In this document: piece by piece, positions 24,537 through 39,628 of the stretch
Layout of the letters: every line of letters begins with the position of its first letter
Position numbering within the stretch: position 1 is the first letter of the stretch
Source: an uncultured Methylomirabilota bacterium
GTDB lineage: Bacteria > Methylomirabilota > Methylomirabilia > Methylomirabilales > 2-02-FULL-66-22
Assembly: GCA_963705305.1 (NCBI GenBank)
Contig: OY970067.1
Span: 1,088,001-1,152,000, forward strand
Direction of reading: 5' to 3'
Length of the DNA: 64,000 nt
Position numbers and translations under genes: made by a program
The notes under the pieces: model-generated
Seen by the model: the letters and a program-made list of their open reading frames with translations, nothing else
What the model was told of the DNA's origin: nothing
Databases searched by the model: none

Positions 24537-25070
24537 CTAGACGGGCGGCTTGAGAGCCGCGATATACGGAAGGCTCCGGTAGCGCTGGTGATAGTCGAGG
24601 CCGTACCCGACGACAAATGTGTCGGGAATCTCGAAGCCGCGATAGGCGATGGGGTGGTCCACGATCCGCCGCACGGCTCGATCGAGGAGTGCGCACACCC
24701 GCAGGCTGGCCGGGCCCCGCTCGCGAAGGATGCGCAGGAGATATCCCAGCGTGAGACCCGTGTCCACGATGTCCTCGACCACCAGCAGGTCCCGTCCGGC
24801 GATCTCCTCCTCCAGATCCTTGACGATGCGGACCACGCCTGCCGCCTTGCTGCTGGGGCCGTAGCTCGAGATGGCAATGAAATCGATAGCCGCCGGGATG
24901 GAGAGCGCCCGGGCCAGGTCCACCAGGAAGAAGGCCGCCCCCCGCAGGACCCCCGCCAGGACCAGATCGCGCCCCGCATAGTCCCGGGAGATCGCCCCGC
25001 CCAGTTCGCGAACGCGGGCGGCAATCTGATCCGCCGAGAACAGCACCTCGCCCAACTCTTCCCCTTTCAT
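24537..25070 (-). CDS. hpt: Hypoxanthine phosphoribosyltransferase
   Basis: GVLRGA, ISSYG, VVEDIVDTGLTL, FVVGYGLDY..RYRSLPYI. Confidence 0.95.
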   Translation of the reverse strand: MKGEELGEVLFSADQIAARVRELGGAISRDYAGRDLVLAGVLRGAAFFLVDLARALSIPAAIDFIAISSYGPSSKAAGVVRIVKDLEEEIAGRDLLVVEDIVDTGLTLGYLLRILRERGPASLRVCALLDRAVRRIVDHPIAYRGFEIPDTFVVGYGLDYHQRYRSLPYIAALKPPV

Positions 25071-26089
25071 AGCGACTGGCCCTCCTCGCCAGGGCGAGTG
25101 GGCGCTCTGGGGGCGATGCCTGGCGGCAAGACAACCCCGTATTTCTGGATGAGGCTCCGGAAGTCCCGCCCGTAGAAGATTTTCAGCCGGATATTGGGAT
25201 ACAGCTCTCTGAGCTTACGGATCTTCCGGTTCTTCTCGGTCACCAGACTTTGCTTCAGCGTGGTCAGCTCCAGGTAAAGATCCAGGTCCGGCAGGTAGAA
25301 ATCCGGGGTGAAAGCCTCGCTGACGTGGCCGGCAACGTCCCAGGCCAGGGGGAACGATGTCGGCTCGTACTGCCAGCGGATCCGGTAAAAGTCCAGGACC
25401 CTGGCCAGCTCGGCTTCACTGGGATGAACGAATCCCGGGTGCTCCCCCAGCCCCTCTACCGAAACACCGCTCCCGCGATGCGCGATCCAGACGGCGATCT
25501 CGTCCAGGTGTCCCCCGATTGTCCGGAGCGAGGCGGCTTCTCGGATGATCGCGGCCGCCGCGTCGGAGCCCAGACGATCGGTCCTGACGATCAGGTCGTA
25601 CTGGGAGGCATCCCCCCAATCCGCACTATAATTATGGCGGATCCACTCCGCTCGCTGCCGATCGTCCTCCGCCAGCACGGCCTCGGCGTCCGCCTCGGGA
25701 ATGTTGCGGTCTTGTCGAATGGCGCTCAGGCGCGCGCCGAGACCGGCGACCACCTTCGCGTGGAGACTCCAGGGGCAATCCCGGAACAAGAACTGTCCCC
25801 CCCGCCCCACGACGACCAGATCTTCCTTCTCGGCCAGCTCCAGGAGCACCGCTTGAAGATAATCCACGTGCACCTGCGGGGCCGTGCCGTGGGGTGACCC
25901 ACCCCGCTCCTCGTCGCTGTCATCCAGCTCCGCACCGGTTAACCCGTGCTCCTGGACGAGCGCCTCGAGGCGGGCGCGGTCCACGAGGGCAAAGCCGAGG
26001 CCTTCGGCCACCTGCGTAGCCACCGCGTCTCCTTGGCTGCCAGCCTGGCGGGCGATCGTGATGATGCCCACAGCCGGTTCCCCCCGCAC
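25067..26089 (-). CDS. Cytidylate-kinase-like domain fused to a C-terminal PD-(D/E)xK-like domain
   Basis: N-terminal ITIARQAGSQG, VVVGRGG, YDLIV; C-terminal HPSE...YEP...FTPDFYLPDLDLYLELTT; overlaps the hpt start (ATGA). Confidence 0.75.
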   Translation of the reverse strand: MRGEPAVGIITIARQAGSQGDAVATQVAEGLGFALVDRARLEALVQEHGLTGAELDDSDEERGGSPHGTAPQVHVDYLQAVLLELAEKEDLVVVGRGGQFLFRDCPWSLHAKVVAGLGARLSAIRQDRNIPEADAEAVLAEDDRQRAEWIRHNYSADWGDASQYDLIVRTDRLGSDAAAAIIREAASLRTIGGHLDEIAVWIAHRGSGVSVEGLGEHPGFVHPSEAELARVLDFYRIRWQYEPTSFPLAWDVAGHVSEAFTPDFYLPDLDLYLELTTLKQSLVTEKNRKIRKLRELYPNIRLKIFYGRDFRSLIQKYGVVLPPGIAPRAPTRPGEEGQSL

Positions 26090-26246
26090 GATGACCTGCG
26101 TGAAAGACGATCAGGTCCTGCAGCAAGCCGATGCCCCAGCGCGGTGATCAGGGGTCGGTCTTGAGGACCCGCTGGTCGTGATGGTACCAGAAAAGGGGGC
26201 GGAAGAGAATGGAGCCTCGAAAGCGGAACGCCGGCGAGAGGCAAAT

Positions 26247-26411
26247 AAAAAAGGACGACCCCGAGTGACCTTCCGGCCCTTCCTGACTTCCTCGTCCAGG
26301 TTTCCTCGGTTTCCTCGGTCTCTTCCTTCCTTGCGGTCGGTCGATCTCGATTCTTCCGTCGGTTCCCTTTCCGAGGTTTCCTGGATGGCCTTCCGACCTC
26401 TCGGGATCGTC
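26247..26411 (-). ncRNA. Candidate CsrB/RsmZ-like GGA-rich small RNA (~165 nt)
   Basis: 13 GGA (12 GGAA) motifs, several in small hairpin loops; 5' GACGAUCCCGAG pairs with 3' CUCGGGGUCGUC, followed by a U6 tract; promoter directly upstream. Confidence 0.7.
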
Positions 26412-26417
26412 ATCTTT

Positions 26418-26446
26418 AATATGGCGCGCTCCACTCTCTCTGTCAA
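26418..26446 (-). promoter_or_regulatory. Sigma70 promoter of the candidate sRNA
   Basis: TTGACA (26446-26441)-N17-CATATT (26423-26418); predicted +1 at about 26411. Confidence 0.7.
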
Positions 26447-26736
26447 TCCCCAATCTGGTCCTTCGTGGAAATGGATCCGCTTTCCGTCTGACGAGCTCCT
26501 TTTATCTGTCGTATCGCCCCGCGTAGCCCCGGGTACGTGTCTCTCGGCACGCTCTCGATCTTCAGGGACCCCATGTCGCAGGTGCCCATCGACATTTCGC
26601 CTGACCACGGAATACGCCCGGGAAAGTCCCGATCCGACAAAGTGGCAACACAGAGCCTTTTTGCCACCAGGCCTGTCATCTTGGTTCAGAATAGCGGGGT
26701 TGCCGCAGCTGACTCTCCCTAGACTCTCGGCGGCCA

Positions 26737-27988
26737 CTAGCCTGAAGCCGACTCCGGCGGAACGGAGGGGATCTTCAGCCCGGCAGTCAGATAAAACCGC
26801 GGGAACAGGAGGTCGTCTTCTGCGCTGACCATCCCTTCCCGAACGGCTGTCCGGGCCAGGGCCGTGCGCGGGTAGATCCGGATCCCCGCCGTGACCTTGA
26901 GGCCGTCGAGGCCCAGCGAGGCGGCGAAGGCGAGACTTTCCTCGATCGATTCCTGGGTTTCCCCCGGCCCCCCCAGCAAGAGGAATCCCATCCGGCGAAT
27001 GCCGTGATCCGCAAAGCGATCCGAGATCTCGCGGACCTCCGCCGGCCGGAACCGCTTGTTCATGGCTCGAAGCATTCGCGGCGAGCCGCTCTCGAATCCC
27101 AGGCTCACCTCCGCGCAGCCGGCCTCGCCCATGGCCCGAACCAGCTCCGCCGGGACCTGGTGGGGGTAGAGGATGCAGCGCCAGACAACGTCCAGCCGTT
27201 GTTCTGCGATGCAGCGGCAGAGGTCCAGGGCATAGGCCGGCGGGAGATTGAAGGTGTTATCCACGAAGTAGAAGCGCCGCACCCCGCATTGCGCCAGGCG
27301 CGTCATCTCCTCCGCCACCCGCCGAGGAGTGCGGGCGCGGATCACCCGGCCCTCGATGCTAGCGGTGGAGCAGTAGGAACAGTCCAGCGGGCACCCCCGC
27401 CGGCTCTGGATCGGGATCCACGCCTCCGGGTCGGCGGGATCCTCTCCCGGCCACAGGTCGGCTTCGGGGGCAGGCAGGGCGTCCAGGTGGCGGACCGAGG
27501 CCCGCGTCCGGCGGCCGGTGCGGCCGGGGGCACGGACTCCGGGCAGATCGGACGGATCCCTCCCTCTCGCCAGGCGCGCCAGTAGATCCGGGAAGGCGTC
27601 CTCTCCCTCGCCGCAAATACCGAAGTCGGCCCCGAGATACGCCAGGGCTGCCGCCGGGAAGATGCTGTATCCCGCACCACCCAGGACCAGCGGAGCGGAC
27701 GATGCGGCCCGACAGGCCGAGACGACTCCCGCGACCTGGTCCAGGAGAAACCGCGGCGGATGCATGCACTGGTCGTCGATGTTTCGGATGGAGATGCCTA
27801 TGACGTTCCGGCCGAACGGACAGGATGCTTCGCGGAATGGCCGTCCCCGGATCTGGCTCACGCAGAAGGTCCAGGAGGACCGTCGCGTGACCGGCGGCGC
27901 GAGCCGCCGCAGCGACCAGTGCGGCCCCCAGGGGGCGCGCGGGGAGGTTGACTCGCTCCGTGTTGGCCGAGATGAGCAGGACCTTCAT
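26737..27988 (-). CDS. B12-binding radical SAM protein, apparent +1 frameshift near 27807
   Basis: N-terminal MKVLLISAN...PLG; GISIRNIDD; RGCPLDCSYC; YFVDNTFN; removing one A restores RPDVIGISIRN. Confidence 0.82.
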
Positions 27989-37648: not shown

Positions 37649-39628
37649 GTAGAGTCAAAGTGGAGCGCGGTCCTGCGCTCGCCCTCGAATCGGTCGCCGC
37701 ACGCGGCTACTGGAGACCACGACGAAGCACCAGACCGTTTCCCCACTCTGCTCATCGAACCGTGCGTGCGGTATTCCCGCACACGGCTCTCGGACGGGTT
37801 TCACACCCCGGCATGCGCAGGCGGCGCCAGACGGACACCGCGCAGCGAGAACACCCCCAGCTCGCCAAACACCCGAGCGAGGCGGAACCGCCGCGTCCCT
37901 CGCGAGGGGACCTTGTGCCGACGCCGCAGGAAGTCGCGCACGCGCTCATAGACGTAGTGGTCCACCGCGCGGTAGGCCAGCCAGCGCGTCCCGTAGGAGA
38001 AGTAGTGGGCCCAGCCCCGGAGCACGGAGTTGAGATCGACCACGATCATCTCCCAGGGCGCCTGGTTGCCCGGCCGGAGGATTCCCCGGATGCGCCCCTT
38101 GACCCGCTGCACCGCCTTCTTGGCGGGCGCGGCCCCCAGGTACCCATGCCCATCCTTCCGGTAGTGCAGCGGCCCGAAGGTGTAGCCCAGGAAGGTGAAC
38201 GGCTCGCGCCGCCCGTCGACCACCCGGGTCTTCTGCTCGTTGAGCGTCAGCCCCATCTGGGTGAACCAGCGGCGCGTCTGCGCGAGGACCTCGGCTGCCC
38301 CATGCTGGCACAGGATCACGAAGTCATCCGCGTAGGAGATGAGCCGCGCCCCGTACCGCCGGTCGAGCCCCCGCAGGCGAAAGACTTTCAGGAAGCGGTT
38401 CATGTAGAGGTTGGCGAGCAGCGGCGAGACACATCCGCCTTGCGGCGTGCCCCGCGTGCTCCGCTTCCCCCCGCTGAACCGCCACCCGCCGCCGTCGGCC
38501 CGCTCCGCCACTGGCGCCTTGAGCCACCGCTTGAGCAGCCGGAGCAGCCGGCGATCGCTCAGGCGGCGGGCCAGCGGTTGCATGAGGTCGGCGTGTGGAA
38601 TCGAGTCGAAGTAGCCCGATACGTCGGCGTCAATCACCGCGGAGTGCCCGGCGCACAGCTCCCGGTGCACTGCCTGGACGGCCTGCAAGGCCGTGCGCCC
38701 CGGCCGATAGCCATAGGCCGTGGGTGCCAGGTCCACCTCGAAGATCGGTTGCAGGATCAGCAGCGCGGCGGTTTGGACCACCCGGTCTCGGATGACAGGA
38801 ATCCCGAGCGGCCGCTCCCCGACCCCGCCCGGCTTGGGAATGCGCACCCGCCGCACCGGTTGCGGCCGATACGTCTCGGTACGCAGCGCCTCCTGCACTG
38901 CGGCCAGCCATGGCTCCACCCCTGCCGCCTCGATGTCCGCGAAGGTCACCCCGTCCACGCCCGGCGCGCCCCCGTGCTGCTTGCTCAGGGCGTAGGCATG
39001 GGCCAGGACGTCCAGGCGGTACACCTTGTCGTACAGGAGGTAGAAGCGGTAGGCCGGCTCCTGCTTGGCCTTGATGTAGAGCGCCTCTTGGAGCCGCCGG
39101 AGCTTTGTTGGAGTTGCCAGGCTCACGCCAATCTCCCACCCCTTGACTCGGTGCGACGCACCCCGAACCAGGGTCCCTTCCCTCCCCACCGGTTGTGTTG
39201 TCCGATGGGTACCCGCGGTACTGTGGACCCCTCCGACGCCCAGAGCCGCCCCCACCCCAACGATGGGGCGAGGGGCGCGACCCCTCGCGGCGTTGGGCCT
39301 CCCGTGTTGCGCTCTGCTCTCTGCCGACGTGCCACGCCCCATACCCCGGTGAGGGACTCCGTCGTCATCGGTCGGTTGCTCCTACGGAGCCGGCGGTCTT
39401 CCCTGACTGAAAAGCAGGTCGACCCTCACGACAGCACTTTCGAGGCTTGCCCAGGCTTCACGCATGTTGCGGCCCGTCCGCTTGCGGACCCACCCACGGT
39501 GGGCCCCTGTCCCGAGGGCTTCGGCCAGTCGGTTACCCTCCTTGCCGCCTCGGTAGCTACTGGGGTGTACCGACAACTCCCCAGGCCGGACTTGCACCGG
39601 CAAGAGCAAAGCGCCTTTCACGGCGCGC
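37649..39628 (-). mobile_element. Complete group II intron (1,980 nt, IIB-type bacterial class, endonuclease-less)
   Basis: 5' GCGCGCCGTGAAAGGCGC; domain V GAGCCGTGTGCGGGAATACCGCACGCACGGTTC (37789-37757); domain VI with bulged A (37655); 3' end ...GACTCTAC; flanks rejoin to GGGCCTTTTTCAGCAGCC. Confidence 0.93.
37801..39126 (-). CDS. ltrA: Group II intron reverse transcriptase/maturase
   Basis: RFYLLYDKV, APGVDG, RRVRIPKPGG..ERPLGIP..RDRVVQ, GTPQGG..SPLLANLYM, YADDF, X domain (LRGWAHYF); no HNH domain; GTG start inferred. Confidence 0.93.
   Translation of the reverse strand: MSLATPTKLRRLQEALYIKAKQEPAYRFYLLYDKVYRLDVLAHAYALSKQHGGAPGVDGVTFADIEAAGVEPWLAAVQEALRTETYRPQPVRRVRIPKPGGVGERPLGIPVIRDRVVQTAALLILQPIFEVDLAPTAYGYRPGRTALQAVQAVHRELCAGHSAVIDADVSGYFDSIPHADLMQPLARRLSDRRLLRLLKRWLKAPVAERADGGGWRFSGGKRSTRGTPQGGCVSPLLANLYMNRFLKVFRLRGLDRRYGARLISYADDFVILCQHGAAEVLAQTRRWFTQMGLTLNEQKTRVVDGRREPFTFLGYTFGPLHYRKDGHGYLGAAPAKKAVQRVKGRIRGILRPGNQAPWEMIVVDLNSVLRGWAHYFSYGTRWLAYRAVDHYVYERVRDFLRRRHKVPSRGTRRFRLARVFGELGVFSLRGVRLAPPAHAGV

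Follow-up and report, generated by a model that had tools for sequence, protein, structure and literature searches.

A 64,000-nucleotide stretch of the genome of an uncultured Methylomirabilota bacterium (contig OY970067.1, positions 1,088,001 to 1,152,000), referred to here as the window, was found to carry the gene of a small RNA (sRNA) on its minus strand. The Methylomirabilota (NC10) include nitrite-dependent methane oxidisers. With a confidence only a little above even, we read the locus as encoding a stable, structured sRNA of about 165 nt that is transcribed as an independent unit from a sigma70 promoter, belongs to a family restricted to one order and acts in trans, its terminal helix docking a protein. 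The family is apparently undescribed, as judged from a literature search and Rfam 15, and among the searched genomes its sequences appear to be confined to one order of Candidatus Methylomirabilota. No work on small RNAs of Methylomirabilota, NC10 or Rokubacteria appeared in the portions of text returned by the full-text literature search.

The preliminary description of this DNA had proposed an unannotated sRNA gene with its own promoter, and this was supported by homologues that retain the promoter, the stem and the U-tract. The TTGACA-N17-CATATT promoter it described is the only sigma70-like site in 25500-27500, where 0.2 sites were expected from shuffled sequences. Seven nucleotides after the CATATT begins GACGAUCCCGAGAGGUC, which pairs with GGUCACUCGGGGUCGUC in a stem of 12+4 bp that joins the 5' and 3' ends of the sRNA; GGUCACUCGGGGUCGUC is followed by a C and then by U6. 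The promoter and terminator scan of the locus gave no short-loop terminator, as had also been remarked earlier, and the end-to-end stem with its U-tract is the sole terminator. A direct repeat had been reported in the interior and was found as a tandem ACCGAGGAA repeat. The overlapping open reading frames (ORFs) were rightly taken to be non-coding: they had no Pfam hit, and the indel lengths among sRNA homologues were not multiples of three. The sRNA scored 174.6 bits with the covariance model R1 and is single copy in its genome by blastn and by a search with the model R3. The features of the locus are listed in Table 1.

Table 1. Features of the sRNA locus, the linked genes and other elements (positions in the window)
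Feature	Position	Strand	Basis or remark
-35 hexamer TTGACA of the sRNA promoter	26441..26446	-	sequence and promoter scan
-10 hexamer CATATT, after a 17-nt spacer	26418..26423	-	sequence and promoter scan
Predicted sRNA, ~165 nt	26247..26411	-	5' end inferred from promoter spacing, 3' end from U-tract
Terminal helix, 5' strand GACGAUCCCGAGAGGUC: outer GACGAU, CCCGAG, A (mismatch), GGUC	26395..26411	-	sequence
Terminal helix, 3' strand GGUCACUCGGGGUCGUC: GGUC, A (mismatch), CUCGGG, outer GUCGUC	26254..26270	-	sequence
U6 tract; with the terminal helix, intrinsic terminator	26247..26252	-	sequence
Lineage-specific body, 124 nt: purine-rich unbranched rod of 2-6-bp helices with symmetric purine loops between them	26271..26394	-	fold and homologue alignment
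GGAAGAAUCGAGAUCGAC, core conserved across the window's subclade	26340..26357	-	one G-to-A change in G001
GCAA (GNRA-type) tetraloop at the rod tip	26331..26334	-	fold; GAAA, GCAA or GAGA in 7 homologues
TGGTACCAT, extended -10-like element ~60 nt past the U-tract	26181..26189	-	TGnTAnnAN position kept in 7/7 subclade homologues
Linked gene: cytidylate-kinase-like P-loop domain (residues 9-171) fused to T7-endonuclease-I-like domain (about residues 220-320)	25067..26089	-	
T7-endonuclease-I-like domain	25067..25750	-	also at L048:2477-2821
hpt (hypoxanthine phosphoribosyltransferase)	24537..25070	-	TIGR01203 189.8 bits against a cut-off of 150; PF00156 hit
ORF with pyruvate-kinase barrel domain, 496 aa	22958..24448	-	domain match only (residues 176-487)
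Stretch of ~290 nt from the radical SAM gene to the sRNA promoter	26447..26736		no assigned feature
B12-binding radical SAM protein gene	26737..27861	-	best NCBIfam TIGR04072
Group II intron	37649..39603	-	D1-D4 region RF02003 99.4 bits; domain V/VI RF00029 40.9 bits

Folding of the 166-nt RNA gave a minimum free energy (MFE) of -68.3 kcal/mol (z = -4.13), and none of 200 shuffled sequences folded equally well. The MFE structure is one unbranched rod with a largest internal loop of 5x5. Across the 7 homologues of the subclade, the rod comprises 44 pairs, in which 97.0% of the cells are paired compared to 27-52% when the partners are slid. Compensatory changes were seen in 7 pairs, and the covariation score was reached by 0 of 500 shuffles, although the alignment had been fitted to the rod model and this favours that model. 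In G007 and L212, Watson-Crick pairs replace the tandem G.A/A.A loops near the GNRA tip, as read from the alignment, which fits a continuous helix. Of the six close homologues besides the window copy, three belong to different genomes of the same genus and three to metagenome contigs, and two of these contigs are near-identical. A metagenome scan with the 17-mer GAAGAATCGARATCGAC matched at least 118 loci, and among the matches listed the true members were L161, L176 and L212; the metagenomes may hold further members of the family.

Model R1 gave an apparent confinement of the sRNA to 4 of the 21 genomes of the genus, a view that was dropped after weak full-length hits elsewhere. Such hits were obtained with model R2 in five other families of the order. 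When read by eye, they had the promoter, the U-tract and the terminal helix in common with the window sRNA, but not the body. The pattern CCRAGAGGTY-N100-200-GGTCACTYGG was present in 32/66 genomes of the order, while the reversed control hit once; a wider pattern matched 37/251 genomes of the phylum, with 5 genomes for its reversed control. Three pattern hits (G081, G141:C7 and G042; two outside the order and one extra in a genome of the order) had no promoter or U-tract and were rejected. A third model, R3, took 49 distinct members as its input and the terminal helix as its only structure. At E<=1e-4, it found the sRNA in 36/66 genomes of the order: 4/21 in family f1, which includes the window, 12/20 in f7, 14/15 in f4, 3/6 in f5, 2/2 in f6, 1/1 in f3 and 0/1 in f2. 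The 85 other genomes of the class gave one hit, a 30-bit partial match that does not contain the helix. The heuristics of the covariance-model searches score only part of the candidates, and many of the counted genomes are incomplete. The genomes are also related, so that the counts are not independent events, and several tallies include two unpublished genomes (G169 and G028). One member lies in a complete 2.8-Mb genome (G043:C1:2417240-2417418).

Genomes of the genus g4 contain up to 9 sRNA matches each, some of them in tandem 371 nt apart. These paralogues have their own promoters and unrelated neighbours, namely BrkB/TPR, FG-GAP, tRNA and DUF502, response regulator and MFS transporter genes, as well as an MscL/TPR/Kelch context from the unpublished genome G169. 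Five g4 genomes (G023, G040, G082, G027 and G096) hold 5-9 copies each, for example at G082:C156:17218-17749. A second copy just downstream of hpt was seen in G063:C189 and G071:C4.

The 49 members share a common anatomy. A promoter of the form TTGANN-N16-18-NANNNT was present in 38/49; among all 49, TTGACA occurred in 28, TATATT in 20, CATATT in 4 and a spacer of 17 nt in 29. From the end of the -10 to CCRAGAGG the distance is 9-14 nt (mode 11) and, therefore, transcription should start at the outer stem. In the window, the -10 ends 13 nt before CCGAGAGG, where the pattern starts, and the near-consensus promoter conforms to the family form. The helix runs from five covarying outer pairs through CCRAG/CUYGG, an A.A mismatch, a G-C pair and tandem G.U/U.G pairs to a C-G or U.G pair, and the window copy matches CCRAG-A-GGUY / GGUC-A-CUYGG and the U-tract exactly (86.4 bits with R3). 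Outer pairs 1-5 are paired in 49, 49, 49, 47 and 43 of the 49 members, with 2-8 pair types each. The R/Y pair is A-U in 31 members and G-C in 18 and is never mismatched. Neither the outer pairs nor the R/Y pair was fixed by the search pattern, and they are thus independent evidence of covariation. The A.A mismatch and the G.U pair occur in 49/49 members, and the U.G pair in 46/49, with C-G in the other 3. Since the G.U and A.A positions are kept non-complementary, it is the RNA that is under constraint rather than an inverted repeat of the DNA. A run of at least three T residues follows the helix in 45/49 members, which means that the helix doubles as an intrinsic terminator and that both ends of the RNA are base-paired. 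Each member is predicted to begin a few nucleotides ahead of this helix and to finish a few nucleotides beyond it. Between the helix strands, the body measures about 107 to 180 nt and differs between families, with unbranched rods in f1 and f3 and branched structures in f4 and f7.

The sRNA is tied to the two genes downstream of it. Its 3' end lies 157 nt upstream of the gene with a Cytidylate_kin2 domain, followed by hpt, whose start overlaps the stop of the preceding gene by 4 nt, and the window locus is thus a linked one. The C-terminal ~100 residues encoded by the linked 340-aa ORF have no Pfam model. A phmmer search of PDB matched this region to T7 endonuclease I (3cae_A), with E = 2.9e-5 for the stand-alone form and E = 0.001 for the window domain. 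The aspartate of the PDF motif and the glutamate are kept, while the lysine of ExK is replaced by threonine. The domain is 49-72% identical across Armatimonadota, Actinomycetota, Chloroflexota, Bacillota and Methylomirabilota. In other phyla, the nuclease is a protein of ~114 aa encoded beside hpt, with a gap of <=140 nt in 36/49 non-Methylomirabilota loci (39/52 with three Methylomirabilota loci included), and the stop and start often overlap.

Within the order, the nuclease gene and hpt lie within 1.5 kb of the sRNA in 24/30 fetched loci, and it is the primary copy of the sRNA that is always linked to them. The sRNA is present in every one of the 34 genomes that carry the nuclease domain (33/33 when the unpublished G169 is left out). 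Two genomes, both incomplete g4 assemblies, have the sRNA and lack the domain, and 30 have neither, including assemblies that are 98-100% complete. The identity of hpt to that of the window was 43-54% in five genomes that lack the RNA and 58-72% in RNA-bearing genomes of other families. The co-occurrence and the hpt types together indicate that the nuclease gene, the RNA and hpt behave as one inherited block. With all genomes that carry the block considered, hpt is 58-92% identical to that of the window, compared to 43-54% in genomes that do not carry it. Two hpt lineages are present inside one order and even inside one genus (L252-L256 versus the window gene).

The sRNA sits in a 647-nt intergenic region, and all the neighbouring genes are on the minus strand. 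Upstream is the B12/radical SAM gene, whose product scored 236.5 bits with TIGR04072 ('lipid biosynthesis B12-binding/radical SAM protein'), under the 360-bit cut-off. This neighbour differs in other genomes of the subclade. Downstream of hpt is the ORF with a pyruvate-kinase barrel, which is below every NCBIfam pyruvate-kinase cut-off and may have a mis-set start or encode an atypical pyruvate-kinase-like enzyme. Rfam at gathering threshold identified only the group II intron across the whole window.

The preliminary description had read the RNA as a CsrB/RsmZ-like sponge, one that would titrate CsrA or another GGA/GGAA-binding protein through GGA motifs exposed in hairpin loops. Its count of 13 GGA, 12 of them GGAA, was correct, and 13 GGA were reached in only 3 of 1000 mononucleotide shuffles (p = 0.003). 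The strong promoter and the purine-rich composition of the whole subclade (66-69% A+G) would also suit a sponge. However, the enrichment is limited to the window copy, since the six closest homologues have 5-9 GGA, not above what their composition predicts (p 0.18-0.83). Only 3 GGA positions are invariant, all of them in or beside helices or internal loops of the rod and none in a hairpin loop. The four GGA-loop hairpins proposed earlier can be drawn on paper but are absent from the MFE and centroid structures of the window RNA, where their bases form long-range rod helices instead. Among the 7 homologues, 64.8% of the cells of these hairpins pair compared to 63.5% in shuffles, and 118 of 500 shuffles reached the observed value; the hairpins are thus not backed by covariation. 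Rfam, including CsrB and RsmX/Y/Z, gave no hit at the locus (26000-26700) even at E<=10, and the bodies of other family members are quite different. Lastly, no match to CsrA (PF02599) or FliW (PF02623) was found in the window genome, a single contig of 5.65 Mb that is 98.9% complete, while control genomes gave matches. The CsrA-sponge reading is, therefore, largely refuted, and we regard a sponge for any GGA-binding protein as very improbable. A second view that we consider scarcely credible is that the element is a non-functional repeat resembling a miniature inverted-repeat transposable element, passively carried, whose terminal inverted repeats mimic a stem. Its multiple copies in one genus, varied insertion contexts and 16-17-bp inverted ends would agree with this. 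Against it, the ends are not inverted repeats at the DNA level, as the G.U, U.G and A.A positions are invariantly non-complementary in 46-49 of the 49 members, and the outer pairs covary. Also, nearly every copy has a U-tract and a promoter at a fixed distance outside the 'repeat', and synteny of the primary copy extends over six families of the order.

The position of the sRNA suggested two further roles. In the window's subclade (7/7 sequences) and in f3, the sRNA precedes the operon by 150-210 nt and shares its strand, as expected of a cis-acting leader or attenuator. In such a role, most transcription from the strong promoter would end at the terminal helix and U-tract, and regulated read-through, either riboswitch-like or protein-mediated, would set the expression of the kinase-nuclease/hpt operon. 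Purine-salvage genes are often under riboswitch control, which would add to this view. In contrast, 21 of the 24 linked loci (f4-f7) have the sRNA on the other strand, in the gap that separates the nuclease gene from hpt, and the paralogues adjoin unrelated genes; the family thus lacks the uniform same-strand position upstream of a regulated gene that is expected of a cis leader or riboswitch. The conserved extended -10-like element TGGTACCAT between the sRNA terminator and the operon probably gives the downstream operon a promoter of its own. No pairing that could act as an alternative anti-terminator was found, the helix links the very start of the RNA to its very end, and no conserved junction resembling a ligand pocket was seen in the body, which is an unbranched rod. 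A cis-leader role for the window copy fits the family poorly, and we would be surprised if it proved correct. The opposite-strand arrangement points to antisense control of the nuclease-hpt mRNA, as by the RNAs of type I toxin-antitoxin (TA) loci or other 3'-overlapping antisense RNAs. The sRNA would pair with the convergent nuclease mRNA and either bring about its cleavage or uncouple hpt, and the copy in the window would have been relocated while still targeting that mRNA in trans. Where the sRNA lies between the two genes, the end of the nuclease ORF falls in the 3' helix or at most 7 nt from it in 20/20 loci, and its stop is the TGA in the antisense of GGUCACUUGG in 12/20. In f5-f7 (L239-L251), the last codons of the nuclease are encoded by the antisense of the U-tract and outer stem (...KKISSK*), and in these lineages the sequence of the protein C-terminus and that of the RNA terminator limit one another. 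Between the sRNA promoter and the start of hpt there is too little room for an obvious promoter of hpt alone, and the perfect co-occurrence of sRNA and nuclease gene would also be expected. The window copy, however, does not overlap the nuclease gene, and its helix has no complementary site in the 64-kb window at up to 3 mismatches. The energy of its duplex with the operon mRNA was no better than that of shuffled sRNA (-79.0 versus -80.6 +/- 5.0), and blastn of the sRNA against its own genome for trans targets gave only short matches at chance level. The window copy thus lacks the overlap or extended complementarity expected of a type I TA-like antisense RNA, although the overlap is found in other lineages. 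Moreover, up to 9 dispersed paralogues accompany one nuclease gene, and the nuclease occurs in other phyla in loci that have no such RNA. As judged from the gene layout, an antisense effect on the operon would be built in in most lineages but not in the window, and we consider antisense regulation an unlikely, if somewhat less improbable, account of the family's role than a leader.

Our favoured reading remains a stand-alone RNA that acts in trans. The window sRNA is upstream of the operon on the same strand and, therefore, must act in trans here. Trans action is also supported by the up to 9 paralogues in unrelated contexts with their own promoters and by the extended -10-like element of the subclade. 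The terminal helix, invariant yet non-Watson-Crick, could be a sequence- and shape-specific docking site for a protein, or else a processing site. The product may be a stable ribonucleoprotein similar to those of Y RNA or 6S RNA, in which the variable body would hold the lineage- or paralogue-specific activity. As partner or pathway, the likeliest candidate is the adjacent block of the P-loop-kinase/T7-endonuclease-I-like protein and hpt, which is inherited and lost together with the sRNA. In most other lineages, the sRNA could in addition serve as a convergent, 3'-overlapping antisense partner of the nuclease mRNA. A narrower proposal, to which we assign a small chance, is that the RNA is a dedicated subunit of a ribonucleoprotein built on the P-loop-kinase/T7-endonuclease-I-like protein, with the helix containing the A.A mismatch and tandem G.U pairs as its handle. 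If true, the role of the variable body would be to direct or gate the activity of the protein, as a structure-specific nuclease or as a kinase, and the genus with up to 9 paralogues would carry alternative RNA subunits for one enzyme.

Several points weigh against the trans-acting, protein-docked reading. A search for sequencing runs that contain the locus gave two DNA runs with part of the stretch and no RNA run. The transcript, its ends and its abundance are predictions made from the DNA, and docking is proposed from nothing other than the invariance of the non-canonical pairs. The inner helix positions were largely fixed by the search pattern, and the overlapping nuclease ORF may supply part of the helix conservation in some lineages. 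No handle-like match was found in 49 non-Methylomirabilota nuclease loci, and in the 27 such loci scanned upstream there was no TTGAC-N16-18-TAnnnT promoter and a T5 run in 2. The nuclease and hpt thus occur in other phyla without such an RNA, which suggests that the protein does not generally need it. In addition, the co-occurrence could reflect physical adjacency alone, as one deletion removes both.

The locus nevertheless represents a well-delimited, covariation-supported RNA family with clear gene signals. The invariant non-canonical helix is an obvious bait for a partner protein, and in the genomes the sRNA is strictly tied to a nuclease domain that lacks a Pfam model and is conserved beside hpt across phyla. 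Removal of the sponge reading also clears a false lead, as no Csr-type system was found in the window lineage.

The family was compared with known RNAs; Rfam gave no hit in 8 further family-member loci. The CsrB/CsrC/RsmX/Y/Z sponges, which are represented in Rfam by the CsrB, RsmY and PrrB_RsmZ families, are likewise stand-alone sRNAs with a strong promoter and a Rho-independent terminator, and the window copy alone shares their GGA richness. They are series of GGA-loop hairpins, whereas the window RNA is an unbranched rod with no covariance-model match to them, in a genome where CsrA and FliW were not found. The bacterial signal recognition particle RNA was rejected since there was no RF00169 hit at the locus and that RNA of the genome was found at C1:1355410-1355509 (68.9 bits). 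6S RNA is similar in its length of ~160-190 nt, its rod-like shape closed by both ends and its abundant-promoter type. Unlike 6S RNA, the window sRNA has no large central bubble and no RF00013 match, and the true 6S RNA is at C1:4757152-4757341 (87.2 bits).

Type I TA antisense sRNAs with 3' overlap include B. subtilis txpA/RatA and bsrG/SR4, and E. coli RalR/RalA, which has a nuclease toxin. The primary copy in most lineages resembles them as a convergent sRNA of 130-200 nt that overlaps the 3' end of a nuclease-like gene. It differs in that the window copy does not overlap the nuclease-like gene, the family has dispersed paralogues, and the linked protein is not a small membrane toxin and is widespread where the RNA is absent. 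Multi-copy families such as Qrr1-5 and the cyanobacterial Yfr2-5 also comprise several autonomous paralogues per genome with a shared conserved module; in the family described here, such paralogues occur in one genus, some of them in tandem. Their shared module is a single-stranded seed or loop, while here it is a terminal double helix.

The Y RNAs and YrlA, which bind Ro/Rsr, differ in their helix motif and in their conserved neighbour, which is rsr rather than a T7-endonuclease-I-like gene and hpt. Membership in this group was rejected, as the window genome has 0 matches to TROVE/Rsr (PF05731) and Rfam gave no hit. Like the family described here, however, Y RNAs have paired 5' and 3' ends that form a conserved terminal stem with a U-tail, a variable interior and several paralogues in some genomes. 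By analogy, they may be the closest parallel for how this RNA acts, with a docking stem joined to a variable effector body.

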